Below, one piece after another: positions 25,271 to 63,600 of a DNA stretch of 64,000 nucleotides (position 1 is its first letter; every line of letters begins with the position of its first letter). Position numbers and translations under genes: made by a program. The stretch comes from an uncultured Gammaproteobacteria bacterium (GTDB lineage Bacteria > Patescibacteriota > Microgenomatia > Levybacterales > UBA12049): the NCBI GenBank assembly GCA_965230895.1, contig OZ246394.1:1441887-1505886 (forward strand), in the 5' to 3' direction. The notes beneath the pieces are model-generated. The model ran no database searches. It was given only the letters and a program-made list of their open reading frames with translations, and was not told where the DNA came from.

Positions 25271-25318
25271 TTAAGCAAACCTATCCATTTGTGCGTGAAA
25301 ACTAGCCGGTGCTGCCCA

Positions 25319-41245: not shown

Positions 41246-44200
41246 ATGCATACTGCCTTATTAATGCAAGAATCACGCCTCAATCATCTCAAACGTATCG
41301 TGGCGGTCGTGAATATCATGACACTTGCTTTGGGACATTTTGCTTTGCCTGTTCATGCAGCAGTTGGTGCAAGTACTTCTGCCCAACCAACAGCTTCTCA
41401 AACAAAAGCTCCCGTCAAAAAGGTTGCAGGAATATCTAATGAAATCAACCGATTGACGTTGGCTGATGATGCTTACTCCAATATCTCTGCGAAACCCCCA
41501 ATCCCGGTAACTGTGGATGTAATGGAAAAAGAAGATTACAAAGCCGATGAACCAGTCACTGTCACAGTGAACAATCCGGATCGGGATGCATTTACGGCCA
41601 AAGTTGTTAATGCAAAAGGTGAAGAAATTCCTGTTGAAAAAAGAATTGTGGACCGGGGAAGTGAAGCCGAAGTGCTTTTGGCGAGTACCAATCAATTTGT
41701 TCCCGGCAAATTTACCATTGAGGTTACTGATGCCAAAGGCAATATATCCAAACAGGATTTCACCTGGGGAGTCCTGGCTTTGAATACAGATAAGGCAACG
41801 TACAAACCGCAGGAAACCGCAGCAATTTCCATGGCTGTTCTTGATGACAAAGGAGAAATGGTTTGTAATGCGGATGTCACGCTCAAAATTACCAACGAGC
41901 AAACCTATATGCAAACGACTTTGTCTACCGAAAACGGTAAGATCGAAATAAATAAAGAATGCTCGACTAAAATCCTGACAACTGTCCCTGATTATGAAGC
42001 CACATATGTCGTTGGCGACGAAGGTAAATATGCGATGGAGCTGCAGGCAAAAACAGAAAAGGGAAGTTACACAATCCATGATGAATTCAATGTCAAAGCG
42101 CAAACACCTTTCGAGATCCGACGAACAAGTGCAACCCGTTTGTATCCACCTCTTACATATCCGATGAATATTGAAGTCACTGCAAGTGAAGATTTTGAGG
42201 GAACTGTCACAGAAACTGTGCCTGATAGTTTTACCATTACACCAGTCGATCAACAATCATCCTATGATGGATTAAAGACTGTGTATTTGGATGGCAAAGA
42301 TCCTGAGAAAAGGATTGAGCAAAATGTCCTGGGTGCAAGTATGTCCGCATTGCAAATGCCTTTTGACGGAAGCTATGCTATCACCCAAGGTTTTGGAGGG
42401 TATATGACCGATGGGGAATTGCGTAATTTCTACTCACAATATGGTCTCTCTGGACATGATGGAGTGGATTTCGCTTTGCCGATGGGAACGCCTCTTTATG
42501 CTGTGGACGATGGCAATGTCGTTTTCTCTGGCCCTGGAGATTATGGTATCACCATCATCATCCAACATGCCTGGGGGAAATCCTATTACGGCCATTTAAG
42601 TAAGGCAGAGGCTCCAAAGGAATCCTCTGTAAAAAAAGGCTCGCTCATCGGATACTCAGGAAATACAGGTGAATCAACCGGACCCCATTTACATTTCGGG
42701 ATGAAGCCAGAGAATCCTGACATGAATAATGGCTATTCTGGGAAAATCGATCCACTTCCATATCTCAATCTTACCGGCAATGGCATCAGACCTCCAGCTT
42801 TGGAACAGGCAATCAATTCATCAGGAGTTCTGTCTGCAACAACTTCGGCTGAAAGTGAAGCAACACATTCCGCAGACAAACCAAACCTGACCGAACCTGT
42901 CGCTCCAAGTGCTTCAGCATCAGCAACGCCTGAGCAGACGAAGGCACTCAATGAAGAAAAGGCTGCACCGTTTACTGTCTTGAGTCAGGAAATAGCAAAT
43001 GAAGTCGCAGATTCTGAGACGAGTGTGACTGAAAAAGTAAAAGTCCTGAAGTGGAAGGTCTCTTTGAAGAAGGGCGAGAAGACGACATTGAGTTACGCAT
43101 ATAAAGCACCTGAAGTAAGTCCACAATTTTATCTTTTAGGTTCTGTAAAAATTTTTAACAAGGATGAGCAGCTTGTCTTCGATGATGTGCGTAAATGGCA
43201 GCTTGCAGGCGACGCAATCGGTGCAAAGTGGTACGACTACAATTGGTTATATCGCAAGGAGATCTCAATTGATAGCTCTCAGGTTCCTTCTACACAGACT
43301 AATTTCCCTGTCTTAGTTAGTTTGACAAGTGATAGTAATCTCTCTACCAGTTCACAAGCTGATGGAGACGATATTCTCTTTACCGATGGAACTGGTATAA
43401 CGAAGCTTTCGCACGAAATCGAAAGCTATAGCTCAGGTACGTTGGTTGCTTGGGTGGAAGTGCCAAGTGTTTCCTCTTCATCGAACACAAGTATTTATAT
43501 GTACTACGGCAATGCAACAGTATCTAGCCAACAAGATGTAGCAAATACTTGGAATAATGGTTCTAATCAGTTTAGATTCGTACAGCATTTAAATGATGGT
43601 AACGTAAGCACAGTTGTTGATTCGACAACAAACGGGAATAATGGTACGAAAATAGTTTCTGCTTCGCAGCCATCTAATTATGCGAGTGGCAAAATAGGAG
43701 CAGCAATGGATTTCGCAGGAAATTCAGCGGGTGCTACAGGTATCACAATCTCTGGCTCACCAGCCAATATTCTTGACGTTACAGATAGTGACTATACATT
43801 CAGCGGATGGTTTAATCCTGATACAATACCCGCTGCCACAGGATTGAGAGATTACGCAGTTGTAGGAAGAAGAGGAAATTTCAGTGGATTAAGTTACGCT
43901 GCGAATCCTGATTTCTTTGCTACCCTTCGCACGACGAGTGCCTTTAACGCCAATACTGCTTCTAATGTCTATGCTACGGGCAGCTGGCATTACGTTGTCC
44001 AGACCGTTAATAATACTTCTAAAGTTCTTTCAATTTATGTTAATGGTTCATTAGTAGATTCTACTTCCTATACCGGAACTTTGCGCAACTATTCAAGTAC
44101 TGAGCCTTATATGATTGGAAGAGCAGATCCAAATGGTACATGTAATACAGATTATGTTTGGTGTGCTGATGGGAAGATCGATGAGGCAAGGCTTTCCAAT

Positions 44201-44371
44201 GTCGCTAGATCAGCGGATTGGATAGCAACCGAGTATAACAATCAAAATTCTCCTGGAACCTTCTACACAGTCGGTTCTGAAGAAACAAAAGTGTATGCGC
44301 CATTGCCTGCTGAGCTTATGCGTCATGGGAAATTCTTTGATACTAGGGGAGAGCAGCCATTCGTTTTCTAG
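41246..44371 (+). CDS. Secreted multidomain protein: N-terminal anchor/signal, Ig-like beta domains, M23 (LytM-type) metallopeptidase domain, DUF2341-like domain and C-terminal LamG/concanavalin-A-like lectin domain
   Basis: M23 motifs GHDGVDFALPMGTPLYAVDDG and GYSGNTGESTGPHLHFGM (HxxxD, HxH). WYDYNWLYRKEISID...NFPVLVSL resembles DUF2341. C-terminal DGKIDEARLSNVARSADWI is a typical LamG_3 ending. Confidence 0.8.
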   Translation: MHTALLMQESRLNHLKRIVAVVNIMTLALGHFALPVHAAVGASTSAQPTASQTKAPVKKVAGISNEINRLTLADDAYSNISAKPPIPVTVDVMEKEDYKADEPVTVTVNNPDRDAFTAKVVNAKGEEIPVEKRIVDRGSEAEVLLASTNQFVPGKFTIEVTDAKGNISKQDFTWGVLALNTDKATYKPQETAAISMAVLDDKGEMVCNADVTLKITNEQTYMQTTLSTENGKIEINKECSTKILTTVPDYEATYVVGDEGKYAMELQAKTEKGSYTIHDEFNVKAQTPFEIRRTSATRLYPPLTYPMNIEVTASEDFEGTVTETVPDSFTITPVDQQSSYDGLKTVYLDGKDPEKRIEQNVLGASMSALQMPFDGSYAITQGFGGYMTDGELRNFYSQYGLSGHDGVDFALPMGTPLYAVDDGNVVFSGPGDYGITIIIQHAWGKSYYGHLSKAEAPKESSVKKGSLIGYSGNTGESTGPHLHFGMKPENPDMNNGYSGKIDPLPYLNLTGNGIRPPALEQAINSSGVLSATTSAESEATHSADKPNLTEPVAPSASASATPEQTKALNEEKAAPFTVLSQEIANEVADSETSVTEKVKVLKWKVSLKKGEKTTLSYAYKAPEVSPQFYLLGSVKIFNKDEQLVFDDVRKWQLAGDAIGAKWYDYNWLYRKEISIDSSQVPSTQTNFPVLVSLTSDSNLSTSSQADGDDILFTDGTGITKLSHEIESYSSGTLVAWVEVPSVSSSSNTSIYMYYGNATVSSQQDVANTWNNGSNQFRFVQHLNDGNVSTVVDSTTNGNNGTKIVSASQPSNYASGKIGAAMDFAGNSAGATGITISGSPANILDVTDSDYTFSGWFNPDTIPAATGLRDYAVVGRRGNFSGLSYAANPDFFATLRTTSAFNANTASNVYATGSWHYVVQTVNNTSKVLSIYVNGSLVDSTSYTGTLRNYSSTEPYMIGRADPNGTCNTDYVWCADGKIDEARLSNVARSADWIATEYNNQNSPGTFYTVGSEETKVYAPLPAELMRHGKFFDTRGEQPFVF

Positions 44372-45390: not shown

Positions 45391-48300
45391 ATGAACAACG
45401 AGTATCTAACAATTCAAGAAGCTGCAACTTTTTTCCGCGTTTCGACAAGGACGCTCAGACGCTGGGAAGAAAAAGGTTACCTTACGTCTCACCGGACGTT
45501 TGGGAACCAAAGACGCTACAGTAAAGCGCAGCTATCCCAATTGCTGGGTGCTGCCGCAGCAGCGGGTGAGGCTGATGTCCAAGTTTCTGAGCAGACAAAT
45601 ACCGCAAAGCCATTTGGATTTCAATCCCAGCCGCAGTATGTCCCTCAAAAAGCCTCAATAGCACATCCAAACCCGATTCCAGTTCATTCGATTCACAAGC
45701 AAATTCAGCCTGAACCTACTCATATCCAAACACTCAAACCTGAGCATAGATTCCATAAGCCTCAATCTGCCATGACATTTGGTGCTGTGATTGCAATAAT
45801 TCTTTTGTCGACGATTGCAGTTATAGGATTTTCGAATGCGCAAACGATTGATGAAAAAAGTCAAGCATTTATCTCATTTCTGAAACCAGGAGAAACGGTC
45901 GAGCAAGTAGGTGGACAAAGTGTTCTTGCTGCAGAAGATAGAATCTCTTCTTTGCAGTTGCAAGTTGATGTGCCAGCTGTATTCGCAAAAAAAGTGACCT
46001 TTCTCGATGCATTTGAGATCAAGAATAGTTTGACAGTGAACAGTGCTTCAAACCTCTTTGGTGGAATTAAAACAAACAACAAAGATATCGATGCAGGAAC
46101 TGGCCAACTGACTGCATCAAACGTGGTCTATTCAGTTCTTTCCGGTACAAATATTTCCATTACCGGTGATCCTCAAAACCCAGTAATCTCCGCACAAGGT
46201 GGAGTAAATTCTGTACAAGGTTTAACTGGCACAATTGCCTTTACCTCAGGAAATGGAATTGATCTTGATGGGTTGGAGATTGTGAACACTGGTGTGCTTT
46301 CATTGCAAGGAGAAAGCGGCGATGTAGCATTTACAGGTGGAACTGGAATCGGCGTGAATGGTCTCACCATCACCAATACTGATCCAGGTTCTGCTCAAAA
46401 AATCTTTGGAACGATTCGCGTTGGATCAACAAATATTTCAGCTGGGTCAAATACAGATACGTTCACAATTTCAGCCGGTGCAGGGATAACATTGGCTCCA
46501 GATGCTGGGAACAAGACATTGACCATCACGAGCAATGCAGCTGGAGTATTGAGTGGCATGACGACAAACGGAGTCTTGTACGCAACCTCTGCAACGACAG
46601 CAACTTCAACTGGGGAAGCTCCAAATGGCTTTATCCTCAAATCAATGGGGCCAGGAAATGCACCACAATGGGTTGCTCCAGGAACAGTTCTTGGATATCT
46701 GCCGTTTGATTTCCTTACGGATGGAACCAATACCACTGCCAACATGATCGTTGGGACCGGAGCAAGTCTTGGGTACACAGGAAGTGGGACGATTAATGCT
46801 TCCTCTTTACAAAATGCGACTTGGGTTGCTCCAGGTGCAATCGGTTCATCAACGCCAAATACCGGTGCATTCACTGCTCTTACAGCAACGACGTTGAATG
46901 GTTTGACTGTCACAGCAAACGGTGCTAATACTCTCAACATAGCTACAGGGAAGACAATTACACTTAACAACTCTCTCTCACTTTCAGGAACAGATGGGAC
47001 TGTCTTCACATTCCCATCAGCAAACGACACACTTGTTGGCCGAAATAGTACAGATACCTTGACCAACAAAACTATTGCTGCGGGATCAAATACCATAACC
47101 GGTTTGACAAATTCCAATCTTTCAGGATCCGCAGGGATTACCAATGCAAATCTCCAAAATTCATCACTTACCGTGACTGCAGGGAGTGGCTTGTCTGGTG
47201 GAGGATTGGTAAGTCTCGGAGGATCGGTTTCACTCCAAAATGCCGGTGTTACATCCGCAACCGCAGGGACTGGAATTTCAATCAACGTTGCGACAGGGGA
47301 TATCACTGTCACCAACAATGGCGTGACATCTGCAGTTGCTGGAACAGGTATCGGCGTCAGTGGTCCGACTGGAGCGATTACGTTTACAAACAACGGAGTG
47401 ACTTCATTGACAGGGACCGCAAACCAAGTAAATGTTTCAGGAAGTACTGGAGGCATTACGTTGAGTTTGCCTCAGAACATTCATACAGCAGCGACTCCAA
47501 CATTTGCAGGATTGACGCTTTCAAATCTCACGGCAAATGGCGGGATCTTATACACCAACGGCACAGGAACTGTTGCACAAACTTCTGTGGGATCGCCTGG
47601 TCAATGTCTCACTTCTAATGGAGGCGGTGCTCCATCCTGGAGTACTTGTGCAGGATCAAGCTATTGGAATCTTTCCAATGGAACACTCTCTCCAGTGAAC
47701 AATACATTGGATCTTTTAGTTGGCGGCACAAGTTCGAACTCCGCAAAATTTGCAGTTCTGAATGTTAATTCTGGAACACCTGTTGCATCAATATCAGCAG
47801 GATCTGCTGGAGCCGCTTATTTAACAGCAACTGGTACATTGCAAACCACTGCAAACCAAACACTCTCGCTTGGCGGCAATACAACTGGCAACATCATCTT
47901 GAATGGTGATGGGAGTAATAACGTTGGGATCGGCACTTTAAATCCAACGTTTGGTTTGGATGTAGCTACGGTAAATGGTGCACGGATACTCTTTGACGAT
48001 GGCTTGGGAGACCCTCGCATTCACTTCAGTCAAGTAGGAGATAATCCAACCCAAGATTTCTACCGATGGACAGGTTCTGGAAGTAATTATTTCGCTTCAC
48101 GATTTAATGTGAGTCCCGGAACAGGTGATGGGATTTTTAACATTCAGGGTGCAAATGATACAAACATGGGCTCGCATACTTTCTCTGATCTTTTGAGTAT
48201 CGTGCTGGGCGGACCAAATCAAGGAAACGTAGGTCTTGGTAACTCTGCTCCTTCACAATTTCTTGATATGGTTCGAAACCAGAACGAATCAACAATGGTA

Positions 48301-51300
48301 AGTTTGGCAAATACAGATAGTGGTGCATTTGCTTACACCATGTACCGAGTTGCTAACGATACTGGCAATGGGGAATTTGGTATTGGTTCATCGGGTAATA
48401 ATGACTTTGCATTTGCGAATAGAGCATATCTTTACGCAAGTTCAGCGACAAATGGTTTAACTTTAGCTGCTGATGGAAGTGGGGATGATATACGGTTTTA
48501 CACAGGAGGTTATGCTCCAACAGATGAACGAATGCGGATTGATAGTGCGGGAAATGTTGGAATCGGAGCAAGTCTTCCACTTGCTACGCTTGATGTTCGA
48601 GGCAATTCGGGAACAACTCCTGTTACATCAGTCTCAGGTATCACGGCACAAGCTACATTGCTCGTCGATAATAACGGAGTGGGTGATCTCTTCACCGCAA
48701 GTAAATCTGGTGCTACTCGGTTTAGTATAGCTAACAATGGAAATCTTATTGCAACGGGCACCTTAACTGGCTTAACGGGTTTGACTACTTCGGGAACAGT
48801 AACGTTGTCATCACTCACAACTGATGGAGGAATCATGTTCACAAATGGTTCCGGAACAATTAGTCAAACGTCTGCAGGAGGTCTTGGTCAATGTCTGATG
48901 TCTAGTGGTGGAGGTGTTCCAACTTGGGGAACATGTGCAGGTGGCACAAATCTTTGGCAATCAAACAATGGAACAATCTCACCATTCTCAAGTGCGCTTG
49001 ACCTCTTGGTCGGTGGTACAAGTACTGCTTCTGCAAAATTCAGATTTATCAATGCGAATTCAGGAACCCCAACAGCATCAATCTCAGCAAACTCAGGCAA
49101 CAATGCCGCATACTTAAGTGGCACTGGAATCTTGTCCACGACAAATGCTCAAACATTAACTCTTGGAAGCGCAACCACAGGAAATGTCGTGGTTGATTCA
49201 GGATCTGGATTGATTACACTTTCAGACAACACAACTGTTGCAGGTAATCTCAATCTCCAAACAGGAAATGCATTCCAGATCAATGGCACCAATGTTTTGA
49301 CTAATAATACGCTTGGATCTGGTGTGACGACATCTTCTTTGACAACCGTTGGCGCCTTAGCAAATGGATCCATAGCCAATGGATTTGGCACGATCTTTAC
49401 CTCGAATACGATTCAGGGAAGTAATATTACCGCAAGTGGGACAACCGGATTTACAGCTTCAGGAAATGGTGCTGGACTCACATTCTCTGGCACAGGGAAC
49501 CATGACATCACAGCATCCAGTGGTACGCTTAGAATGGGTGATGTTACCTTTAACGGCGTTATCACAACCGGTCTCACTGGCAACAACGCTGCACTGTACG
49601 CTGTTTCAGGGACAGGAACATTAGCAGGTGCAACAACAAATACACAAAACCTCTGTCTCTTGTCTGGGGTATCAGCTCCTGCCTGGGGAAGTTGTCCGAT
49701 TGGGGCAAATTACTGGAATCAAAATAATGGCGCGTTATCTCCAATGAACTCCACTGTCGATTTCCTTTTGGGCGGCCAAGCTTCAAGCTCCGCGAAGTTT
49801 GCAGTACTCGGTATGAACTCAGGAACTCCAACAGCATCAGTTTCAGCAACAAGCACTGGAAACGGATTATCATTGGCTGGCGATGGCACGATTCAAACGC
49901 TCCGAAATAATACACTCACATTAGGCGGAAGTACCACCGGAAACATTCTCCTTATGCCTACCAATGGAAGCGGGCGAGTAGGGATTGGGACTGCAACGCC
50001 GCAGAGTACATTGGATGTAAATGGGACAGTAAGGTTTACCAATCAATTGAATTTTACTGATGCAGTCTTTGGGCAAATCCAAACGCTTGTAGGAAATGCG
50101 TATCTTGATTTCAAGACAGCAGCTGGAACTGGTGCAATTACCTTTACACCAAATGCAACAGAAGCAATGAGAATTTCACCAAATGGTATGGTCGGAATTG
50201 GTACAAATGGATTGCTTACACCATTTGCAACATTGGATGTTCGCGGCCGATCAGGAACTTCACCAATTGCCTCATTGTCTGGTGCAACATCGCAGGCATC
50301 TTTGGTTATTGATCAGTCTGGTGTTGGGGATCTCTTTACTGCAAGTAAATCAGGCCTCACAAGATTTGTTATCGATAATGCTGGCAACGTAAAGGTTGGG
50401 ACACAAACATCCGGTGCGAGTTTGCAAGTGACAGGTATGAGTGGCTATGGAGTTATGATTGGCGGCGGCGCTGGTGGAGGAAATACAATTGATGGAACTT
50501 TGAATGGTGTAATGAATCAGCCATTGTGGCTTAACTCTGCATCTGCGCAAGATGTCTATATTGCTCCAAACGGTGGAAGTGTTGGTATAGGTACAAGTGC
50601 TCCTGCAGGAGCACTTGATGTCAGAGGTAATTCAGGAACTGCACCAGCTGCTTCATTCTCGGGACAAACATCTCGAGCAGCAATGGTTGTCGACAACAAT
50701 GGCACCGGAGACATCTTTACAGCTTCAAAATCAGGTGCATCAAAGTTCACGATCTTGAATAACGGAAACCTTCAAGTAAATAATTACACGACAAATGGAG
50801 GAGTCCTTTATACAAATGCGTCAGGAGTTGTTGGCCAAACAGCAGCTGGTTCAGGTGGACAATGTTTGCAATCTAATGGTGGAGGCGCACCAACATGGGG
50901 TTCATGTACTGGAGGTATGGTTAATTACTGGCAGCAAAACAATGGCGCTGTCTCTCCAGCAAATAGCACCAATGACTTCATTATTGGAGGTACTGCAACT
51001 TCATCAGCACGATTCTCTGTAACAGGAATGAGTTACACACTTGGAGGCGTGAGCTCTTTTAACTCTGCTAATGCACTTCCATCAGGGAGAACATTTAATG
51101 GCGTAGTCTCAGCAAATGGATATATCTATTCAATCGGTGGATACAATGGTGGTGGTCAATCAACTGTTTACTATGCATCATTGAATGCAGACGGTTCAGT
51201 GGGAGACTGGAGAACGACATCAGCTTTGCCTACAAGTTTGAGTAATGCGACTGCAGTTGTCTACAACGGCTACGTATATGTGGCTGGTGGACAGGTTTCT

Positions 51301-53958
51301 GTAACGTTGCAGAATAAAGTCTATTACGCTCGTCTTAATACCGATGGAACACTTGGTTCATGGCAGACTGGTACAAATCTTCCTCAAGCGATCCAATCAC
51401 AATCTTCAGTGGTTGCAAATGGTTATTTGTACATGCTTGGAGGATCAAATAACGTTATCAACAACAACATCAATACTATTTATTACACAAAGATCAATGC
51501 GGATGGTTCGATCGGAGCGTGGGTAACAAATGGAACAAACCTTCCTGCTGCTACTCGCGGTCATACATCTGTTGTCGCAAATGGATATGTTTATATGATT
51601 GGTGGTAATGCAAGTGGTGGAACGACAAATGTTTACTATGCAAAGCTCAACGGTGACGGTTCGGTAGGATCATGGACTTCAACCAATGGGCTCCCAGCAG
51701 CAAGAGTTGGTCATTCTTCGATGGTCGCAAATGGTTTTGTCTATGCTGTCGGTGGAGACGATACAAGTAATGCGCAAGATGAAGTGTATTATGCGAAATT
51801 AAATGATAATGGATCTCTTGGGACATGGTCAACCAATCAATATCTGCTTCCGGGAGTTCGTGGCAATATTTCGAAGAATGGTGTTATCGAAAATGGTTAT
51901 ATGTACGTTCTCGGCGGATCTACGACGACAAGTGGTACAAGCGGTATCCAAAGTACTGTGTACTACGCAAGTACCGCCAGAATTTCAATGAATGCGAACT
52001 TGGATTTGATTGGATTGTCCGGAGGAAATATCGCTTCAGCATCAGGTATGGTAGGCAACGGATCAGTTGGCGGAAGTATCTATGCTGGAAATATCTTTAG
52101 TAATGGTAGTCTTACTGTCGCAGGAAGTGCTCAATTATGGAATGGACTTTCAGTCAATGGTAATCAGACATTGAATGGTTCATTGAATATCTTTGGTTCA
52201 AATGGCACAACGCCTGCTGCTTCAGTGTCGGCTAGTACTGCAGGTGCGGCGATGGTAGTCGATAACACTGGCGTGGGAGATCTCTTTACAGCCTCTAAAT
52301 CCGGTGCGACAAAATTTGTTATCAAAAACAACGGAAATGTCGGTATTGGGACTGATAATCCTACGTTCCCATTGCAAGTTGAAGGAATATCTTCACTTAA
52401 TTATGTTACGAATCCAAATATCTATGGTGTGAATATCGGTGGAGGTATCTTGTTCTCTCAATACAATACAGGTACAGCGGAAAATGTATACCTTAAAGTT
52501 TGGGAAGCAAACGCTGGATTCGTATTTGAAAATAACGGTGCAGCGACAAATGAAATCGCGAGACTTACAGGTACTGGATCATTTGGACTTGGAACAAGTA
52601 ACTTTACCAACTTGCCAGACGGCTCGCTTCACCTTGGGAATGGTGCAATCTGTGTTGACGATGGAGGTAGTAATTGTGACGATGCATCGAGAGTTGCGGG
52701 CAGAATCTACGCAGAATCAAGTACTGTTACTGCAATTGATTTGGCTGAAAACTATCCTTCAAAAGACAACACAATGGAACCTGGAGACGTAGTAATTGCT
52801 GATCCAAACAATACTGAATATGTGAAGCGCTCTGAAGGTTCGTATCAGGGAAGTGTGATCGGTATTATTTCTACTAAGCCTGGTATCCTTCTTGGAGGAT
52901 TTGGTGATGAAGAAAAACGATTTGGTAATGACAAGAAGTATCCAATCGCTCTTGCCGGAAGAATCCCTACAAAAGTAAGTACAGAAAATGGTCCAATCAA
53001 ACCTGGAGATTATCTTACCTCAAGTAGCATCCCAGGTGTCGCTATGAAGGCAACCCAAGCGGGTACAACCATTGCAAAAGCTGTTGAAGCATACGATAAC
53101 TCTGATCCTCGAGTTGTCGGCAAAGTTGTCGCTTTGGTCAACCCATCCTGGTATGACCCACGAGCAAGTTTGAATAGTGATGGCAATATCACTGTTGATG
53201 GTAAGCAGTTCAATCCACAACTTGCACAAGATCAGAACACTGCAATGTCTGATTACTCATTCAATGCAAGGACAGCGACCTCTTCAGCTTTGACTGATGT
53301 GACGAATAAGACAAATGTCCTGCAACAGATGCTATCTGTATTGACGCAACGAGTGGATACGTTAGAAACCAATGCAAGTAGCTCTGCATTTATGACAAGT
53401 GCTCCTGGTGGATTTGTATCATCATCGGCTGCAGAATTAGACCTCGAAAAGCTTGATGTCAACAAACTTACAGTCACTGATACATTGGCTGTTGTAGGGC
53501 GTACAACGCTTGCTGACGTAGGTGTTACTGGAAAGGTGAATATTGGGCTACTCAGCATTGAAGGACTTGATGATGAGGGTTCTGCAGCGATCAATACATC
53601 AGTTGGAACGTTGCGTTTGCAATCAAATGGCTTGAATGGCATTGACATACTCAATGGCAAGATGACAATTGATGCCAAAGGTAACCTTAAGACCGTAGGG
53701 GAGATAACAGCAAAGAAAGTTAATATCGATACAGAAGAAGTAGCGAGTGCTTCTCTTGGTGAGGTCATCCTCAAGTCAGGTCAGACGAAGGTGACCGTTA
53801 AGACAACAGCGCTCTCTGAGAAGTCCAAGATCTTTGTTCAAGCTGAGGAAGTGCCTGTTACGACGGCGGTAAAGAAAGTCTCTAAGGATACCTTTGAGAT
53901 TAGAGTTCGATCTGCTGAAGACTCAGACGTCAGCTTAAGCTGGTGGATTGTTAACTAG
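45391..53958 (+). CDS. Giant surface protein 2 (2,855 aa): N-terminal MerR-type HTH, TM helix, G/T/S/N-rich repeats, six-blade Kelch propeller, unique C-terminal domain
   Basis: N-terminus LTIQEAATFFRVSTRTLRRWEEKGYLTSHRTFGNQRRYSKAQL. TM MTFGAVIAIILLSTIAVIGF. Repeats share the GQCLxSNGGGAP(T/S)WGxC and LDVRGNSGTxP motifs with gene 1. Kelch blades at about 51055..51975. Confidence 0.85.
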   Translation: MNNEYLTIQEAATFFRVSTRTLRRWEEKGYLTSHRTFGNQRRYSKAQLSQLLGAAAAAGEADVQVSEQTNTAKPFGFQSQPQYVPQKASIAHPNPIPVHSIHKQIQPEPTHIQTLKPEHRFHKPQSAMTFGAVIAIILLSTIAVIGFSNAQTIDEKSQAFISFLKPGETVEQVGGQSVLAAEDRISSLQLQVDVPAVFAKKVTFLDAFEIKNSLTVNSASNLFGGIKTNNKDIDAGTGQLTASNVVYSVLSGTNISITGDPQNPVISAQGGVNSVQGLTGTIAFTSGNGIDLDGLEIVNTGVLSLQGESGDVAFTGGTGIGVNGLTITNTDPGSAQKIFGTIRVGSTNISAGSNTDTFTISAGAGITLAPDAGNKTLTITSNAAGVLSGMTTNGVLYATSATTATSTGEAPNGFILKSMGPGNAPQWVAPGTVLGYLPFDFLTDGTNTTANMIVGTGASLGYTGSGTINASSLQNATWVAPGAIGSSTPNTGAFTALTATTLNGLTVTANGANTLNIATGKTITLNNSLSLSGTDGTVFTFPSANDTLVGRNSTDTLTNKTIAAGSNTITGLTNSNLSGSAGITNANLQNSSLTVTAGSGLSGGGLVSLGGSVSLQNAGVTSATAGTGISINVATGDITVTNNGVTSAVAGTGIGVSGPTGAITFTNNGVTSLTGTANQVNVSGSTGGITLSLPQNIHTAATPTFAGLTLSNLTANGGILYTNGTGTVAQTSVGSPGQCLTSNGGGAPSWSTCAGSSYWNLSNGTLSPVNNTLDLLVGGTSSNSAKFAVLNVNSGTPVASISAGSAGAAYLTATGTLQTTANQTLSLGGNTTGNIILNGDGSNNVGIGTLNPTFGLDVATVNGARILFDDGLGDPRIHFSQVGDNPTQDFYRWTGSGSNYFASRFNVSPGTGDGIFNIQGANDTNMGSHTFSDLLSIVLGGPNQGNVGLGNSAPSQFLDMVRNQNESTMVSLANTDSGAFAYTMYRVANDTGNGEFGIGSSGNNDFAFANRAYLYASSATNGLTLAADGSGDDIRFYTGGYAPTDERMRIDSAGNVGIGASLPLATLDVRGNSGTTPVTSVSGITAQATLLVDNNGVGDLFTASKSGATRFSIANNGNLIATGTLTGLTGLTTSGTVTLSSLTTDGGIMFTNGSGTISQTSAGGLGQCLMSSGGGVPTWGTCAGGTNLWQSNNGTISPFSSALDLLVGGTSTASAKFRFINANSGTPTASISANSGNNAAYLSGTGILSTTNAQTLTLGSATTGNVVVDSGSGLITLSDNTTVAGNLNLQTGNAFQINGTNVLTNNTLGSGVTTSSLTTVGALANGSIANGFGTIFTSNTIQGSNITASGTTGFTASGNGAGLTFSGTGNHDITASSGTLRMGDVTFNGVITTGLTGNNAALYAVSGTGTLAGATTNTQNLCLLSGVSAPAWGSCPIGANYWNQNNGALSPMNSTVDFLLGGQASSSAKFAVLGMNSGTPTASVSATSTGNGLSLAGDGTIQTLRNNTLTLGGSTTGNILLMPTNGSGRVGIGTATPQSTLDVNGTVRFTNQLNFTDAVFGQIQTLVGNAYLDFKTAAGTGAITFTPNATEAMRISPNGMVGIGTNGLLTPFATLDVRGRSGTSPIASLSGATSQASLVIDQSGVGDLFTASKSGLTRFVIDNAGNVKVGTQTSGASLQVTGMSGYGVMIGGGAGGGNTIDGTLNGVMNQPLWLNSASAQDVYIAPNGGSVGIGTSAPAGALDVRGNSGTAPAASFSGQTSRAAMVVDNNGTGDIFTASKSGASKFTILNNGNLQVNNYTTNGGVLYTNASGVVGQTAAGSGGQCLQSNGGGAPTWGSCTGGMVNYWQQNNGAVSPANSTNDFIIGGTATSSARFSVTGMSYTLGGVSSFNSANALPSGRTFNGVVSANGYIYSIGGYNGGGQSTVYYASLNADGSVGDWRTTSALPTSLSNATAVVYNGYVYVAGGQVSVTLQNKVYYARLNTDGTLGSWQTGTNLPQAIQSQSSVVANGYLYMLGGSNNVINNNINTIYYTKINADGSIGAWVTNGTNLPAATRGHTSVVANGYVYMIGGNASGGTTNVYYAKLNGDGSVGSWTSTNGLPAARVGHSSMVANGFVYAVGGDDTSNAQDEVYYAKLNDNGSLGTWSTNQYLLPGVRGNISKNGVIENGYMYVLGGSTTTSGTSGIQSTVYYASTARISMNANLDLIGLSGGNIASASGMVGNGSVGGSIYAGNIFSNGSLTVAGSAQLWNGLSVNGNQTLNGSLNIFGSNGTTPAASVSASTAGAAMVVDNTGVGDLFTASKSGATKFVIKNNGNVGIGTDNPTFPLQVEGISSLNYVTNPNIYGVNIGGGILFSQYNTGTAENVYLKVWEANAGFVFENNGAATNEIARLTGTGSFGLGTSNFTNLPDGSLHLGNGAICVDDGGSNCDDASRVAGRIYAESSTVTAIDLAENYPSKDNTMEPGDVVIADPNNTEYVKRSEGSYQGSVIGIISTKPGILLGGFGDEEKRFGNDKKYPIALAGRIPTKVSTENGPIKPGDYLTSSSIPGVAMKATQAGTTIAKAVEAYDNSDPRVVGKVVALVNPSWYDPRASLNSDGNITVDGKQFNPQLAQDQNTAMSDYSFNARTATSSALTDVTNKTNVLQQMLSVLTQRVDTLETNASSSAFMTSAPGGFVSSSAAELDLEKLDVNKLTVTDTLAVVGRTTLADVGVTGKVNIGLLSIEGLDDEGSAAINTSVGTLRLQSNGLNGIDILNGKMTIDAKGNLKTVGEITAKKVNIDTEEVASASLGEVILKSGQTKVTVKTTALSEKSKIFVQAEEVPVTTAVKKVSKDTFEIRVRSAEDSDVSLSWWIVN
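51055..51975 (+). other. Six-blade Kelch-type beta-propeller module inside giant protein 2
   Basis: Six repeats of the pattern NGY(I/V/L/M)Y..GG....(T/N).VYYA.LN.DGS.G.W.....LP.....(S/T).VV. Confidence 0.75.
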
Positions 53959-54606: not shown

Positions 54607-57600
54607 ATGAAGGATCAAACTCTAACAATTCAAGAAGCTGCAAAATTCCTTGGAGTAGCTACCAAGACTCTCCGCCGATGGGACGAGAGTGGGCGATTAA
54701 AGCCTGAGCGAACAGTTGGGAACCAACGTCGCTACTCACTCTCAGAACTTGAAGCATTCCAACAAACTAAGCCCCAATTTCCAGTTATTTCCGATCCTGC
54801 TTCTGAAGCTCCTCTACCTTCCCATATTGCTGTCGCACAAGAGGCTGTAGATTTACAAGCAAAAAATGCAGTTAATGAACAGCCACAATTCTCTGGAGTT
54901 GTTGATGCTCAAGTTTCCAAGACGGAAGTAAAAGAAGAAGTTTCGAAGCCACAGCCTTTTGGTTTGGGAACTGTACCAATGCAAAGTTCACTTGAGAGAA
55001 AGGAATCAAATGATAACTCTAACGAATCAAAAGGCATCAAGATTGGTTTCTTTTCTCATCCTCATTATGCGATGGCTCTGGCTGGCGCTTTAGCTCTGCT
55101 TCTCCTTTTCTTCACCTTTGGCTTCATTAATGCTCAGAATGCAAATGACACTGATCTCGCTTTCCAGAATAAGGCTGTTCTTGCTGCAGGGGATAAGACG
55201 CCGTTGATTGTGCTTCGGGTGAACGTTCCAAGTGTCTTTGGAAAACAAGCAACCTTCCTCGACAGTGTAAATATCCAGAAGGGTCTTACGGTTGGTGGCG
55301 TGGCTACATTGAGTGGAGGTGTGGTCACAAATAACGCAGATATCAATGCTGGAACTGGTCGACTGACTGCATCAAATGTAATCTATTCATTGCTTGCTGG
55401 ATCAAATATCTCAATCACCGGTGATCCTCAAAATCCTACAATCGCTGCAGATTTTGGGAGTGGCTTGGTTTCATCCTTCCAAGGTGAAACCGGTGCTGTC
55501 ACATTGCTTCAGGGTTCAGGTATTGGGCTTGACGGATTAACGATAACAAACACTGGTGTACTCTCTGTTCAAGGCCAAACAGGGTCTGTTACCTTCACTG
55601 GCGGCAATGGAGTAAGTGTCTCAGGCACCACGATCAACAATACTGATCCTGGATCTGCACAAAATATCTTCAAGAGTATTATTGCTGGCTCAACGACTAT
55701 AGACGCAAATTCAAATAATGATTCAGTCACATTTGCAGCTGGTTCAGGCATTACTATAACAGGTAATGCGGGTAGTAAGACTGTGACAATTACGAGCAAT
55801 GCTAGTGGTACATTATCAGGTTTAACCACAAATGGCGTACTCTACGCAACCGATCCAAACAATGCTTCAAGTACAACAGCTGGTACAACTGGCACAGTGC
55901 TCAAAGGTGTTACCGCTGGAGCGCCTATCTTTGGAGCAGTAGATTTATCAGCTGATGTGACAGGCCTTCTGGCTGTTAATCGGGGCGGTACAGGTTTGAC
56001 TACAACACCAACCAATGGCCAACTTCTTATCGGCAATGGTGCTGGTTACAGTCTTGGAACAATCACTGCTGGAGCAGGAATCGGTGTCAGCAATGGTGCA
56101 GGCACAATTTCACTTACGAACAACGGCGTTTTGTCTATAACGGGCACAGCGAATCAGATAACCACTTCAGGAAGTACTGGTGCGATTACTCTTTCATTGC
56201 CTCAAGATATTGCAACAAGTTCAAATCCGATCTTTTCATCGCTCAGTCTGACGGCCAATACCAATCAACTGACTTTGGGTACTGGGAACACTGGAGTTTT
56301 GACACTTAGCGCCTTGTCCGGCAATCGAACTTATACATTGCCTGATGCGTCTGGAGAAATCTGTCTCTCGATTGGTAATTGTCCGGGAGGTGGAGGAGGA
56401 ACCATTGGAGGATCGGGAACGACGAATTACCTCCCGCGCTTTACTAGCGCAACCAATCTGGGCAACTCGCTCATTTACGATACCGGAACGAAGATTGGTA
56501 TAGGCACAACCAGCCCGCAAGGGCTTTTTTCCGTTGTTGGGGGTGCTGCTGGACAAGCCTTAGTTAGCCTCGACGAAACAGGTGATCAAAATATCTTGGT
56601 CGGGTCAGCCTCTGGCACAACACGCTTTGTCTTCGATCGAGCAGGCAATCTCAACATCAATGGCGGTTCGTATCAGATTGGAGGTTCAAATGTTTTGACC
56701 TCAACGACATTGGGGTCAAGTGTCACTGGATCCTCTTTGACGAGTGTCAGTACGCTTAATGCTGGCTCAATAGCTTCAGGCTTTGGTTCAATTGACGTGG
56801 GAGCAGATTCGATTTCTGGTGGAGACATCACTGCAACCGGTTCAACTGGAATTACTATAACAGGCAATGGAGCTGGATTGACCTTTTCAGGCACGGGTAA
56901 TCATGTCATAAATGCATCATCTGGAGTACTTCAATTTGGGGCAGCTACGTTGACCGGTGCAATCACGGGTAATAATCAAAATATCACTGGACTTTCCAAT
57001 TTATCAGCTGCTGGAACGATCACATTTAGTGGACTATCAACAGGAGTAGTGAAAAGCAATGGTTCGGGTGTCCTTTCATCAAGTGCGGTTGGCTTGAACA
57101 CAAGTGATGTCACCGGAATTCTTGGTCCAACAAATGGTGGTACTGGCTTGAACAGTTACAATGCAGGAGATCTCATTTACGCATCAGGATCAAATACACT
57201 AGCTGCACGGGCAATTGGAACAAATGGACAAATTTTGACTGTTTCCGGTGGCGTACCAGTCTGGGCTGATGCTGGCGGACTTATCAATTTCTGGCAAAGA
57301 GCAAATGGTGCAATTTCACCGCTTAACATCACAGACGATTTCCTCATCGGTGGAACTGCGACATCATCAGCTCGATTCCAAATTTCTGGAACAACCGGTG
57401 ATGCTTCAACTTCCGGTAGCATAACTTTCAGAAATGGCGGATCAATCCAGACAACTTCTAATCAATCATTTACGATTGGTGGTAGTACAACAGGCAACAT
57501 TACACTTGCTCCGTTAAATGGCAATGGTGTCGTCACTGTCAATGGAGACCTCAATCTTGCTTCAGGAAAGGCTTTGCAGATTAACGGATCAAGTGTCCTC

Positions 57601-60600
57601 ACTGCAAGTACATTGGGTTCAAGTGTCATTAATTCCTCACTGACTTCAGTTGGGGCGTTAACAGGTGGATCAATCGCTTCAGGTTTTGGAACGATCACAA
57701 CAACCAATACCATCACCGGCACGACATTAAACGGGACAACAGGTATCAATACTGGCGCATCAGCTGGAACACAGCGAATCGATGCATCAGGCAACTTGGT
57801 TAATATAGGAAACATTACCGCGAGCGGGACAATTACCTTTAGTGGCTTATCAACGAACAATGGCTTGCTTTACACCAATGGTTCAGGAGTTGTTTCTCAA
57901 GCAGCAGCTGGAACATCAGGCCAACTCCTTGTTGCAAATGGTTCTGGTGTCCCAACATTTGTGACACTTTCAAGTGATGCAACATTGGCTGCAAATGGTA
58001 CGTTAACAATCGGTGCTGATGCTGTAGCGTTGGGAACGGATACTACCGGAAATTATGTCGCGACATTATCTTCAGGAAATGGTATCTCAGCGGCAGCAAC
58101 GGGAGAAGGTTCCACTCCGACGATTGCGCTTGCAGCATTGACAGCTGATTGGAATCAGACAGGTGGATTTGACATCGTCTTGGGAAATGCTTCAAGTGAG
58201 CTTCGAATCATGGAATCATCAGGAGCTACATATTACGGAACAATTGATGTCGGAGATCTGACCAATAATCAAACATATACGTTCCCAGATGCATCTGGTA
58301 CCGTTTGTCTGCTTGAAGCTGCAAATTGTACAGGTGGAGCAAGCAGTTCTAAGTGGCAGAGAAATGGTACAGTGCTTGCACCATTAACAGCCTCAGATCA
58401 AGTTGTTCTCGGTGGTAATACTACGACTGACTTCCAATTTGAAGTAAATGGATATCGAGTCGGTAAAGCATTGGTTTCATTTAATCAGACAGGTGATCAA
58501 AACATACTTACTGCAAGTTCATCAGGTGTGACAAAGTTCAACCTTACGAACACCGGCAATATAGAATTCGCAGGCAATACAAGTTTCCTTAATACACTTA
58601 CCTCAGTGGCGACTGCAAATAGAACATACACATTGCCTGATGCTGATGGCACAATTTGTTTGACGACAGGTAATTGTGCTGGTGTCGGTGGAGGACTTAC
58701 TGGTGCAGGAACTTCAGGACAAATTGCATTCTTCAATGGCACAGGAACTTTGACTTCTGAGACTTCAGGATTTGCCTGGGATGCAACCAACAATAAATTA
58801 GGTATCGGCAATGACACGCCGACAGGTAAATTGGATGTTACTGGCGCAAATCTTGGAAAAGCGCTTGTCATCTTCAATGAAACAGGCGATCAAGATATTC
58901 TAGTTGGATCTGCTTCTGGAACAACACGATTTGTCTTTGACCGAACAGGTAACTTAAATCTTAATGGTGGAGCGTATCAAATCGGAGGGGCAACCGTGCT
59001 TAGTTCTACAACGCTTGGATCAAGTGTTGTTTCATCTTCACTGACATCCGTTGGTGCATTAACTGGCGGATCAATTGCATCTGGATTTGGGACAATCGCA
59101 ACAAATAACACCATTACCGGTACTACTATAAATGGTACGACAGGAATTAATACTGGAGCAGGTGCTGGTACACAGCGAATTGATAACAATGGTAATCTCT
59201 CAAATATCGGAACGATTAATGCTTCAGGTGCTTTGACCTTTGGCAACTACACAACCAACGGTGGACTCTTATATACAAATGGTTCTGGAGTCGTTGGTCA
59301 AACTGGTGCAGGAACATCAGGACAAGTGCTCCAATCCAATGCAGGTGGTGCTCCAACATGGGTTGATGCAGCAACACTCGGCACGAATTATTGGCAGCGA
59401 ATTGCTGGTACAGTAAGTCCACTCAATATTACTGATGATCTTTTGATCGGTGGAACTGCGACAAGTTCTGCAAAGTTCCAAGTATTTGCAAATACAGGAA
59501 ATGCAACAACATCAGGTAATCTAACATTCAATGCAGCAAGTGCAATTCAGACGACACGAAATCAATCACTCACAATCGGAGGCGACACAACAGGCAATAT
59601 CACACTTTCACCTTTGAATGGTAACGGTACCGTGACTTCAACTGGAGACTTGAATCTTGCAACGGGTAAAGGTTACCAAATCAATGGAGCAAATGTTTTG
59701 ACTGCAACAGCACTTGGATCAAGTGTGGTTTCATCATCGCTTACATCGGTTGGTGCGTTAACTGGCGGATCAATTGGATCTGGATTTGGAACAATCGCAA
59801 CAAGTAACACAATCACTGGTACAACATTGAATGGTACGACAGGAATTAATACAGGAGCAGGAGCGGGAATACTCCGAATAGATAATAATGGCAATCTTTC
59901 TAACATCGGTACAATCGATTCCACATACTTGGATGCTACTGGTAATAATGTTAACTTGGCTGCATCAACCAATTTGCAATTCAATGGAACAACCGTTATT
60001 AATAGTTCACGAGAACTTAGTAACTTGACTGGATTGTCTACAAGTCTTAATCCGACTGCAGCAAATACGTATGCACTTGGTACAGGAACTGGCAATCAAT
60101 TCTCAACAATTTATGGACAGGCTTTGTATCAAAATGGCAATCAAGTTTGTGATACTTCAGGTAACTGTTCTGGATTGTCAGTTAATTATTGGGATCAGGC
60201 AAATGGTGTTATCAATCCAAAGAATGCAACGCTCGATTTCTTGGTAGGTGGCAACGCTACTGCTTCAGCTAAATTTGCAGTTTTGAACATTAACTCTGGC
60301 ATTCCAACAGCATCTGTTTCAGCAGGGACAAATGGTGCTGCTTATTTGACTGCAGCTGGAACGTTGCAAACTACGGCAAATCAGACTTTGACTATCGGAG
60401 GAAATTCAACTGGAAATATTATTCTTTCACCACTTGGTGGTTCAGGTACGGTTACTTCAACAGGCGATTTGAATTTGGCAAGTGGTAAGCAATTCCTTAT
60501 TAATGGTGCATCTGTTTTGACATCAACAGCACTTGGTACAGGAGTTGTTTCATCATCCCTCACAAGTGTCGGCGCATTAACTGGAGGATCAATCGGATCA

Positions 60601-63600
60601 GGTTTCGGTACGATCGCAACTGCAAATACCATCACTGGTACAACAGTAAATGGTACGACAGGAATTAATACTGGAGCAGGTGCTGGAACACTCCGAATCG
60701 ATAACAATGGTAACCTTTCAAACATTGGCACAATCAATGCAAGTGGTGCGATTACCTTTAGCAACTTGGGTGCGGGTATCGTGAAATCAACAGGTGGTGG
60801 ACTGCTTTCATCTTCTGCATTGAATTTGGCAAGTGGTACAGAAGTTACTGGAACGCTCGGAGCAGGAAATGGTGGTACAGGATTCAATTCTTATGCAACT
60901 GGTGATCTCCTGGTTGGAAATGGTTCAAGTACATTGAGTAAGTTGGCTATTGGCACAGACGGGCAAATTCTCTCAATAGCTGGTGGAACTCCTTCATGGA
61001 TTTCAAGTTCATCAATTAATTATTGGCAGCGAGCAAATGGATCACTTGCTCCGTTAAATATTACTGATGATCTTTTGATCGGTGGCACTGCGACAAGTTC
61101 AGCGAAGTTCCATGTCTATGGTTTGACAGGGAATGCTTCAACATCTGGTACATTAACTTTTGATACCGTAGGCAATATCCAAACGACTCGAAATCAAGCA
61201 TTAACCATCGGTGGAAATGCAACAGGAAATATTGCTTTGATGCCACAAAACGGTGCAGGTATGGTCGGTATAGGTACAACAACTCCAACCAATTCACTCA
61301 CTATTGGTGATGGTGGTATTACTATTAATAGAACAGGCGGTTTGGATCCAAATCTTGTCTTCAGTACAAGTGGAACAGCTCAAGCACAGATCCGTGGTGC
61401 AACTGATGGATCACTTTCATTTACCAATGGAAATGCTGGTACAACATGGGGCATCTTTAATTCAGTTGGAAGCTTTGGACTTGGTACTGGTTCAACGCCA
61501 CTTGCACGACTTGATGTAAGGGGTAATTCAGGGACAACTCCAGTTGCATCATTCTCTGGCAACACATCAAGAGCTGCGATGCTCGTTGATAATAATGGAG
61601 TAGGCGACTTGTTCACCGCTTCAAAGAGTGGCGCTACCAAGTTTGTCATCGCAAACAATGGTAACGTCGGCATCGGTACACCAACTCCAAATTCTGCATT
61701 GAGTATCGTCAATCCGATTGCAGCACAAACAGGATTAACGATCCGCGCGAATGCCTCACAAAGTACAAATACATTTGTTATTGAAGATAGTGGTGGTACT
61801 CCACAGTTCACTATTGATCAATATGGTGGCATCTATGGCTCAAATGGATTAACAATTGATCGATATGCTGGTATCGGTACAGGTGGAAGTTCTGGAACGC
61901 AACTCCGAATTCAGACAATTACAGTCAACGATGTTGGTTTTGATACCACTGGTATGAATGGGCAAATCGCAAATCTTGCAAACTTCAATCCAGTCTTTGG
62001 TTATACAGGTGCATGGTTTGATGAATCCGCAAACTTACGTATCGGCAATGGAGCTCCTGATACAGGTAAATTAAATGTAACGGGTGCATATACAGGAAAG
62101 GCATTGGCAATTTTTAATGAGATAGGCAACCAAGATATCTTTACCGCATCAAGTGCTGGAACGACACGATTCACAATCGCAAATAATGGCACACTTACAG
62201 CATCTGCCTACACAACAGCAGGCGGACTCTTATACACAAATGGTACAGGAACAGTCGCCCAAACAGGTGCTGGCACATCCGGTCAATGTCTTTTCGGTGG
62301 TGCAACTCCTTCATGGGGAACTTGTGCAGTGGGTACGAATTATTGGAATGTTTCAAATGGTGCACTTTCTCCTGTTAATAATACCCTTGATCTGTTGATT
62401 GGAGGAACAGCTTCATCATCAGCAAAGTTTGCGTTCCTTAATGCGAATTCAGGAACTCCAACAGCAAGTATCTCTGCTAATTCTGGTGGAAATGCAACAT
62501 ACTTAACAGGAGATGGCACACTTTCTACAACATTAAATAGAACATTAAGCTTGAATCCAAACGGCGGAAATGTAGGAATCGGCACAACAAATGCTACACA
62601 AAAGCTTACGGTAAACGGAAGAATCAGAACCGATGGAGGAATGGTCTTCAATCAAGGATTGGCGCCAACAGCTAACTTCATTTATGTCGGAGGAGATACC
62701 GCGGGTGCTACCGATCAACAGTTCGGATTTGTTCTTGCAGGTGTTGGTTCTACAACTGCCGCACAAGGAGGATACTTTGTCGGTAGAGGAAATAACTTCA
62801 GTGACATTTCAAATCAAAAAGGAAATATGTATTTTGCTGCTGGGAATCCAGGTGGAGCAGGAGCACTTGAAGGATCTCTCAATTTCTTAACGGGAAACGA
62901 AGTGAATCGAATGATGATTACAAATGCCGGTACCATCGGTGTTGGCACAACAAGTCCACTTGCAACATTGGATGTCCGAGGACAAGTTGGTACCAATCCA
63001 ATTGCTTCATTCTCAGGATCAACTTCAAGAGCAGGATTGATTGTTGATAATAGCGGAACAGGGGATCTTTTCTCAGCTTCATCATCAGGACTTAATCGAT
63101 TTGTTGTGAAGCAAGATGGTAATGTGGGTATCGGTACAGCCACTCCAAATTCAAAGCTTGAGGTAGCGGGTCAAGTACGTACAAGTGGGGCATCCGGAGG
63201 ATACAGATTGGAGGCACAAGATAATGGTGGATCCTTCTATACATTATATAGTGCTTCAGGGGAATTAACATTTTATGGAGGGCTTAATGTTCGTGCAATC
63301 TTAACAGCAAGCGGCTTATTTGGCTTAGGAACAAATGTTTATGATCCACAAGCACAAATGGATATCCGAAGTACACTTGGGACGCAACCGATAGCATCAC
63401 TCTCAGGTACTACTTCACGAGCAGGTTTTGTTGTTGACAACAATGGAGTTGGAGACCTTTTCACAGCATCAAAGAGCGGCGCAACGAAGTTTACAATCTT
63501 GAACAATGGAAACATTTCAATGAACAACTACAACAACTGTGGTATGTTGACGACAGTTGGAACGGTGCTCACATGTAGCTCTGCGCCAGCAGGAAGTACA

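Follow-up and report, generated by a model that had tools for sequence, protein, structure and literature searches.

The closest described systems to the locus reported here are the pre-neck appendage (tail spike) gp12 of phage phi29 (PF11962, MEROPS G2; 3GQH, 3GQK, 3SUC) and the mosaic adhesive trimeric (MAT) fibres of Bdellovibrio bacteriovorus, a bacterium that itself lives on other bacteria and forms these fibres as part of its cell (PMC10769870; 8OND, 8ON4). The C-terminal domain of gp12 is an intramolecular chaperone that is released by auto-proteolysis (PMC4690869), and the mature gp12* terminates at residue 691 (PMC6542822). In this process trimerisation precedes cleavage and the release is ATP-dependent, and the fold of the domain is grouped by ECOD with that of the head decoration protein gpD (PMC13397572). 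MAT fibres comprise S74 and non-S74 subfamilies; S74 cleavage has been shown experimentally, and the tips are swapped among paralogues (PMC10769870). Here we analysed a stretch of 64,000 nucleotides (the window; assembly GCA_965230895.1, contig OZ246394.1, positions 1,441,887 to 1,505,886) from the Patescibacteriota, or candidate phyla radiation (CPR). It contains three giant genes on the same strand from 25.3 kb on. The second one, gene 2 (45391..53958, + strand), is one intact open reading frame (ORF) of 2,855 amino acids (aa) according to the ORF list and its translation, and encodes a giant surface fibre. Its tail is most likely a chaperone cassette of the phi29 gp12 type (Peptidase_G2), predicted from sequence comparison to be self-cleaving, and a Kelch propeller stands in line in the stalk before it. 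For self-cleaving chaperones of the phi29 type, the papers that we found describe only phage tail spikes.

An earlier, sequence-only reading of the window had given gene 2 a unique tail of roughly 600 aa. It turned out that the part unique in the window is limited to aa 2444-2855, while aa ~2252-2443 are a copy of a repeated stalk module. Both motifs quoted from the tail are present, DLAENYPS... at aa 2450 and KYPIALAGR... at aa 2516, and the unique region begins exactly at the former (D2450). Searched alone, the tail had no Pfam domain above threshold and no PHROG family, and phmmer against PDB gave only 8on4 at E 0.19; because these single-sequence searches were nearly empty, a family profile was needed for identification. 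We detected 418 homologues of the C-terminal region, whose common core covers aa ~2450-2600, and the Asp and Glu of DLAE are invariant in all 45 aligned cores. The profile of these 45 cores matched phi29 gp12 in PDB (6qz9_A; E 7.4e-5), with DLAE aligned to D692-F-A-E695, and thereby the gp12 cleavage site S691|D692 is in register with I2449|D2450. The first residue of 3gqh, the cleaved gp12 fragment, is the aligned Asp of DFAE, and 3suc has DFAQ at the aligned position. Besides, 17 of the 45 relatives individually match PF11962 (best 2.8e-7), some of them above the 25-bit cut-off. In the fold comparison the gene 2 domain has the fold of the gp12 C-terminal fragment, its best structural match being the cleaved fragment and not a cement protein. 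We regard aa 2450-2600 (52738..53190, +) as a Peptidase_G2-type intramolecular chaperone domain with a gpD/beta-tulip-like fold (the G2 domain), and I-DLAE (52735..52749, +) as the predicted autocleavage site I2449|D2450, placed by the alignment to gp12.

The earlier reading had suggested similarity to the S74 intramolecular chaperone. Its chaperone lead was right and the type was not: gene 2 has no SDxxxK motif anywhere and no match to PF13884 at E<=10, so S74 is ruled out. The S74 chaperones of phage T5 pb1 and K1F endosialidase (PF13884) resemble the gene 2 domain in their role, as they nucleate the trimer at the C-terminus and are then removed by auto-proteolysis (PMC4690869), but their fold is unrelated and their chemistry uses a Ser/Lys dyad. 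The proposal that the tail is a ligand-recognising head is not supported; the tail is most likely a cassette for folding and self-cleavage that would be removed.

In gene 2, unlike in gp12, about 255 further residues follow the G2 domain, and they fall into three elements. First comes a long helix, predicted at aa 2633-2663 (53287..53379, +; DSSP on the AlphaFold2 (AF2) model, helix 194-224, moderate confidence), and in this model it is possibly a coiled coil. The beta-rich segment with LDVNKLTVTDTLAVVGRTTLADVGVTGKVNIG (aa ~2680-2788; 53428..53754, +) is conserved in full-length C-terminal homologues (A2 consensus), and its monomer model has a predicted local distance difference test score (pLDDT) below 50. 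The chain closes with a beta-sandwich of about 67 aa (aa 2789-2855; 53755..53955, +; pLDDT ~90). The motif LDVNKLTV..., which had been taken for the C-terminus, sits at aa 2688, 168 residues before the end, and the protein in fact ends with ...SWWIVN in the sandwich. The cassette model matches chains of phage depolymerases, tailspikes and pyocin fibres (9k4a, 7eea, 7w1c, 6cl6); because the preceding segment is poorly modelled, these matches most likely come through the terminal sandwich. The sandwich also matches PF24146 (K1-lyase_C) with E 0.0036, below the cut-off, and one homologue (P0044) scores above it. In short relatives the G2 domain and the sandwich are directly adjacent and follow a phage-type HylP hyaluronidase beta-helix, and therefore the two behave as one C-terminal cassette. 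What looked like a “unique” tail of 400 aa can thus be annotated as a recognisable cassette.

The second main element is a six-bladed Kelch beta-propeller at aa 1890-2194 (51058..51972, +), located within the stalk and identified by Pfam, six motifs, AF2, Foldseek and its homologues. Six copies of NG[YF].Y..[GA]G lie at aa 1909, 1959, 2010, 2064, 2114 and 2168, with a spacing of 50-54 aa, and neither gene 1 nor gene 3 has this motif; gene 2 also has five VYYA.LN.DGS.G.W motifs. The Pfam matches are above their cut-offs, with 72.7 bits for PF24681 (cut-off 50, E 3.6e-20), 34.6 for Kelch_6 (PF13964; cut-off 25.3) and 23.5 for Kelch_1 (PF01344; cut-off 20.1). The AF2 model, built with 50 homologues, is all-beta with six repeating units of four strands (mean pLDDT 95.4, predicted TM-score 0.93), and its top Foldseek matches in PDB are six-bladed Kelch domains (designed SAKe6, KLHL12, Keap1 and LZTR1; E about 1e-17, TM 0.7-0.85). 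In the model, the domain is a closed six-bladed Kelch propeller. This agrees with the six blades that had been read from the sequence, the periodicity of which does fold as a propeller in prediction. The same reading had placed the propeller at the start of the distal domain, which did not hold: because the stalk module recurs behind it at aa ~2252-2443, the propeller is an in-line insert of the stalk.

Homologues of the Kelch region are numerous (741 detected; best E 1e-119), and the top ones have 45-49% identity over about 90% of the domain. Most of them are CPR proteins of 400-550 aa in which a single propeller stands between a signal peptide and a P[ND]TG[YF]G-transmembrane-basic tail, and some have a prepilin N-terminus instead (P0133, P0142, P0193). 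Therefore, the propeller can be regarded as a mobile surface module, which occurs in stand-alone and prepilin-type proteins. The stand-alone CPR proteins (e.g. P0121 and P0157) share this level of identity and keep the six-blade consensus, but they consist of signal peptide, propeller and anchor only, whereas in gene 2 the propeller is spliced into a giant fibre. In a homologous locus of another Patescibacteria genome (L016) a Kelch propeller is followed by a stalk of about 315 aa and then by a homologous C-terminal region ending in WWIVN. Another one (L073; CAYSNN010000029.1, frame +2) has three tandem six-bladed propellers (aa 513-834, 1021-1321 and 1403-1720) upstream of a G2-type domain, and therefore the number of propellers per fibre varies. 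The propeller is a better candidate for ligand binding than the C-terminal tail. Two observations on these homologues may be added. In P0121, P0124, P0125, P0127, P0148 and P0157, all from Saccharimonadales, the P[ND]TG[YF]G end looks like a variant of a sortase-type sorting signal, and in P0133, P0142 and P0193 the Kelch propeller is carried on a pilin-like protein.

The stalk before the propeller (45838..51057, +; about 1,740 aa) consists of repeated beta-rich fibre modules, recognised by profile and motif matches. The signature GVGDLFTASKSG is found at aa 1096, 1644 and 1771 and, after the Kelch domain, at aa 2294. Gene 2 has five VGIGTxxPxxxL motifs, the spacing of which is one residue off the published motif of the MAT capping loops, VG(G/N)-x-x-x-P-x-x-x-L. 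We built a stalk profile (A5) from nine module copies of the three paralogues, and it matched the trimeric beta-helix of the Bdellovibrio MAT fibre Bd2133 (8ond_A) with E 2.9e-5 over four stretches; besides, 7 of the 9 copies match the PHROG tail-fibre family phrog_9942. The suspected likeness of the stalk to tail fibres is borne out by these matches, and the sequence comparison supports a resemblance to trimeric phage tail fibres and MAT fibres. The post-Kelch module at aa ~2252-2443 (52144..52719, +) was found by composition-corrected blastp and by the GVGDLFTASKSG signature at aa 2294, and is 64-68% identical to the copies carried by genes 1 and 3 as well as by the earlier part of gene 2. 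For this comparison the run with composition statistics was used, as the matches over the full length that blastp yielded without the correction were spurious and came from sequence rich in G, S, T and N.

At its N-terminus gene 2 begins with a MerR/HTH_17-type helix-turn-helix (HTH) at aa 5-52 (45403..45546, +), which is predicted to be cytoplasmic (PF00376, 4.5e-11, 42.8 bits with a cut-off of 28.2; PF12728, 1.2e-7). It is followed by a linker that ends in a single transmembrane (TM) segment at aa 127-149 (AMTFGAVIAIILLSTIAVI...; 45769..45837, +; Kyte-Doolittle), with basic residues on its N-terminal side. This is the sole place where a 19-residue window has a mean Kyte-Doolittle value above 1.6 (value 2.5). 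Because no other segment is strongly hydrophobic, we infer an N-in/C-out topology, with the HTH in the cytoplasm, one membrane pass and about 2,700 residues outside the cell. No MerR C-terminal dimerisation or effector domain was detected in gene 2, where linker, TM segment and fibre come after the HTH; as judged from sequence, gene 2 has only the DNA-binding module in common with MerR-family regulators. The HTH-first start (MerR/HTH_17/excisionase type) is found in all three giant genes (25316-25480, 45403-45546 and 54616-54770), each time ahead of a hydrophobic anchor stretch. A DNA-binding domain tethered to an extracellular fibre of several thousand residues is unusual. In GTDB genomes we found at least 563 related loci, of which the best 80 were considered, and all neighbourhood and architecture counts refer to 79 related loci. 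The HTH-fibre-G2 architecture exists in 4 of these 79; it is also seen, with two HTH copies, in Daviesbacteria proteins of about 800-900 aa that are annotated as “MerR family regulators”.

Compared with phi29 gp12, gene 2 has its DxxE motif in register with S691|D692 and E695, and in both proteins a beta-rich fibre or spike immediately precedes the chaperone domain. The differences are that gp12 is a virion protein and gene 2 a cellular membrane-anchored fibre of 2,855 aa; that the gene 2 domain lacks the middle of the Pfam profile (positions ~101-173); and that this domain, predicted to be self-cleaving, would act outside the cell and without ATP. With the MAT fibres the locus shares a homologous beta-helix stalk module (8ond, at the E value given above) and paralogues with a common stalk and swapped C-terminal tips; among the MATs some carry a chaperone at the C-terminus that cleaves itself, and in some the tip is a beta-sandwich. 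In contrast, MATs begin with a signal peptide, followed by a conserved, beta-rich N-terminal domain of about 130 aa, and in place of the signal peptide gene 2 has a MerR HTH and a TM anchor; the MAT chaperone is of the S74 type (SDxxxK), where that of gene 2 is of the G2 type. The giant proteins of the window are also 3-5 times longer, and a Kelch propeller is not reported among the six MAT tip structures (PMC10769870). The parts of gene 2 are thus all of known kinds, and their combination (a CPR giant fibre with HTH-TM anchor, in-line Kelch propeller and a chaperone of the phi29 and not the S74 type) was not found described in the literature searched, and no description of HTH-anchored or G2-type fibres in CPR was found there either.

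We hold the domain assignments in gene 2 to be correct with high confidence. The model that joins them, a membrane-anchored CPR fibre with a self-cleaving cassette and ligand binding by the Kelch domain, seems to us probable by a modest degree. The fibre is most likely a homotrimer. In this model the chain would be exported N-in/C-out, and the cassette would trimerise first and, beginning at the distal end, serve as the template on which the intertwined stalk folds. Once a correct trimer has formed, the D2450/E2453 site would cut the chain between I2449 and D2450, and the cassette of 406 aa would be released or kept bound non-covalently. The mature fibre would then extend about 255 residues past three Kelch propellers displayed on its sides, which may bind a surface ligand of the host or prey, probably a glycan. 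How the ultrasmall CPR/Patescibacteria recognise and attach to their hosts is largely unexplained, and the literature on attachment mentions type IV pili and, without naming them, “adhesins” (PMC10633639, PMC12206443). The locus shows giant fibres built from phage tail-fibre parts, and it offers a predicted maturation step (cleavage at I2449|D2450), a candidate host-binding module (Kelch) and a rationale for the differing ends of the paralogues.

Several points weigh against this model. We infer cleavage as well as trimerisation and the binding of a ligand, PF11962 does not match the gene 2 tail itself even at E<=10, and the G2 fold is also found in non-cleaving capsid cement proteins. The release of gp12 is reported to be ATP-dependent (PMC13397572), and ATP is absent where an exported fibre folds. 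The cassette has 406 aa against 163 aa in gp12 (2.5x), and its tailspike-like end seems much to discard. The relatives give further difficulties. The G2 domain family is very large: it has 30,939 cluster representatives (50% identity) when the threshold is E<=1e-3 and 24,959 when it is E<=1e-10, and proteins of 2,000-5,700 aa are numerous among them. Among the 148 top-scoring representatives (P0266-P0413) the domain lies at a median of about 390 aa from the C-terminus, and in 147 of them it is repeated in tandem as two or three complete copies, as in P0267 (aa 1596-1751 and 1859-2013). DxxE is kept in 148 of the 153 copies at inner positions and in 141 of the 148 at the last position (about 96% of 301 instances), and its conservation in internal copies is awkward, as a simple release of a terminal chaperone does not predict it. 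A G2-like domain in the window itself (23162-23932) has no DxxE, and “mutarotase” labels, which come from automatic annotation, are attached to Kelch homologues. These tandem copies, the domain without DxxE, which indicates that the fold can work uncleaved, and the resemblance of the terminal sandwich to the domains with which tailspikes, depolymerases and pyocin fibres end at their C-terminus would all suit a different reading, the one given earlier from sequence alone, in which the C-terminal ~400-600 aa stay on the fibre as a paralogue-specific receptor-binding head; the G2-like domain would then be an uncleaved structural trimeric knob of the beta-tulip/decoration-protein type. We think it rather unlikely, because a purely structural role leaves the conservation of the D/E pair, invariant in 45 of 45 cores and nearly so in the tandem copies, unexplained; besides, the cleaved gp12 fragment is a better structural match than any cement protein, and the minimal cassette of G2 and sandwich after enzymatic phage-type beta-helices (HylP) stands in the classic position of a chaperone.

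The propeller could also be an enzyme, a NanM-like sugar mutarotase or a galactose-oxidase-like protein, so that the fibre delivers catalysis. The weak NCBIfam match to TIGR03548 (cyclically permuted mutarotase) points to this, but its 44 bits are far under the cut-off of 243; homologues have precomputed PF24996 (NANM) matches and the Joint Genome Institute (JGI) name “N-acetylneuraminic acid mutarotase”, but such names are automatic, and the nearest structures are protein- or ligand-binding Kelch domains. An enzymatic propeller is in our judgement quite improbable. Least of all do we expect a prophage or a phage tail-fibre cluster in place of a cellular surface structure, for which the chance appears very slight. 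The phage-type G2 chaperone, the tailspike-like sandwich and the tail-fibre-like stalk modules would fit such an origin, and weak relatives with 33% identity exist in jumbo Pseudomonas phages; annotated phages as a whole gave only a dozen weak relatives of the G2 family. However, all three genes begin with an HTH and a membrane anchor, the PHROG families have no match to the tail, the checked genes upstream of the cluster are housekeeping genes, and CPR lineages are named in the record titles of most of the best 80 of at least 563 related GTDB loci. A prophage origin was rejected on gene context. Returning to the model of a self-cleaving, membrane-anchored fibre, one can extend it by a joint reading that we consider speculative and give little credence. 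By analogy with ToxR and Notch, the three paralogues would be one-component contact sensors in which contact of the Kelch or other tip of the fibre with the host is coupled through the TM helix to the cytoplasmic MerR-type domain, mechanically or by proteolysis, and attachment would directly reprogramme transcription. In the same reading the G2 cassette would be a variant of the phi29 chaperone that works outside the cell and needs no ATP, and in relatives the two or three tandem DxxE copies might be programmed break-points for shedding or remodelling of the tip.

Gene 1 had been read as a single gene. It turned out to be two overlapping ORFs, 25289-39358 and 39318-41111, and comparison of the ORFs places a frame change of 1 nt in the A-run at 39347..39350 (+). 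With one A deleted the sequence reads DFQVK|GDNDANLLF...RVGIGT, which resembles DFRIESDGNANMFFVD...EVGIGT of P0278. The downstream ORF begins within stalk sequence and has no HTH, TM segment or signal sequence. A sequencing error, pseudogenisation in the recent past or programmed +1 frameshifting could account for the frame change. The C-terminal domain of about 185 aa (KVTLSAEYPG...MTSDASPSA...NYYEW...VQVGDIILNY; 40563..41111, +) is conserved in homologues, of which only 25 were detected; none is annotated and the few named ones are from CPR. As the sequence-only reading had stated, this end (the last ~185-250 aa) is unrelated to the tail of gene 2, with an hhalign probability of 0.09% against the A2 profile. 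No PDB, Pfam or profile-profile match was found for it, and no copy of it is present among the 79 related loci. Gene 3 (54607..64000, +) is the third paralogue, with the same HTH-TM-stalk layout and more than 3,100 aa, and it continues past the end of the window. The notion of a common stalk with different distal ends is thus right for genes 1 and 2, while for gene 3 the end lies beyond the window.

Between genes 1 and 2 are a small unannotated ORF and a gene for an M23 peptidoglycan endopeptidase of 1,041 aa (41246..44371, +) that also carries DUF2341 and a lectin-like Laminin_G_3 domain (PF01551, 5.5e-25; PF13385, 8.9e-18; PF10102, 6.9e-13). Among the 79 loci, 8 have an M23 gene close to the gene of the G2-type fibre. 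Tips of the gene 1 type and the adjacent endopeptidase would fit a toolkit for host attachment and attack. The left third of the window contains genes of LeuRS, ArgRS, ComEC, a histidine kinase and the F-type ATPase subunits alpha, gamma and beta. Because LeuRS, ArgRS, ComEC and F-ATPase genes flank the cluster and the homologues are from CPR, the sequence context indicates that this is a locus of a cellular chromosome and not of a phage. The homologues of the gene 2 parts are overwhelmingly from Patescibacteria/CPR (Saccharimonadales, Levyibacteriota, Daviesbacteria and others). The best relative among the GTDB representatives has 43% identity, and the exact protein was found only on one independent Logan contig of 15.9 kb (SRR14271372).

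Two other proteins of the window deserve mention. At 23162-23932 (- strand) a protein of 256 aa consists of a signal peptide, a G2/beta-tulip-like core and a C-terminal hairpin; the core scores 116.7 bits with the family profile, without the DxxE motif. The hairpin is similar to subunit c of ATP synthase (9itj_H, E 0.0018), and the residue aligned to the ion-binding Glu is an Ile. This protein heads the F-ATPase operon (b-like, delta, alpha, gamma, beta), in the usual place of atpB/atpE, and we saw no gene for a canonical a or c subunit at that operon. At 11957-13720 a protein of 587 aa combines a carbohydrate-binding domain (CBM_4_9) with a type I dockerin domain at its C-terminus, which is unexpected for a small CPR genome.

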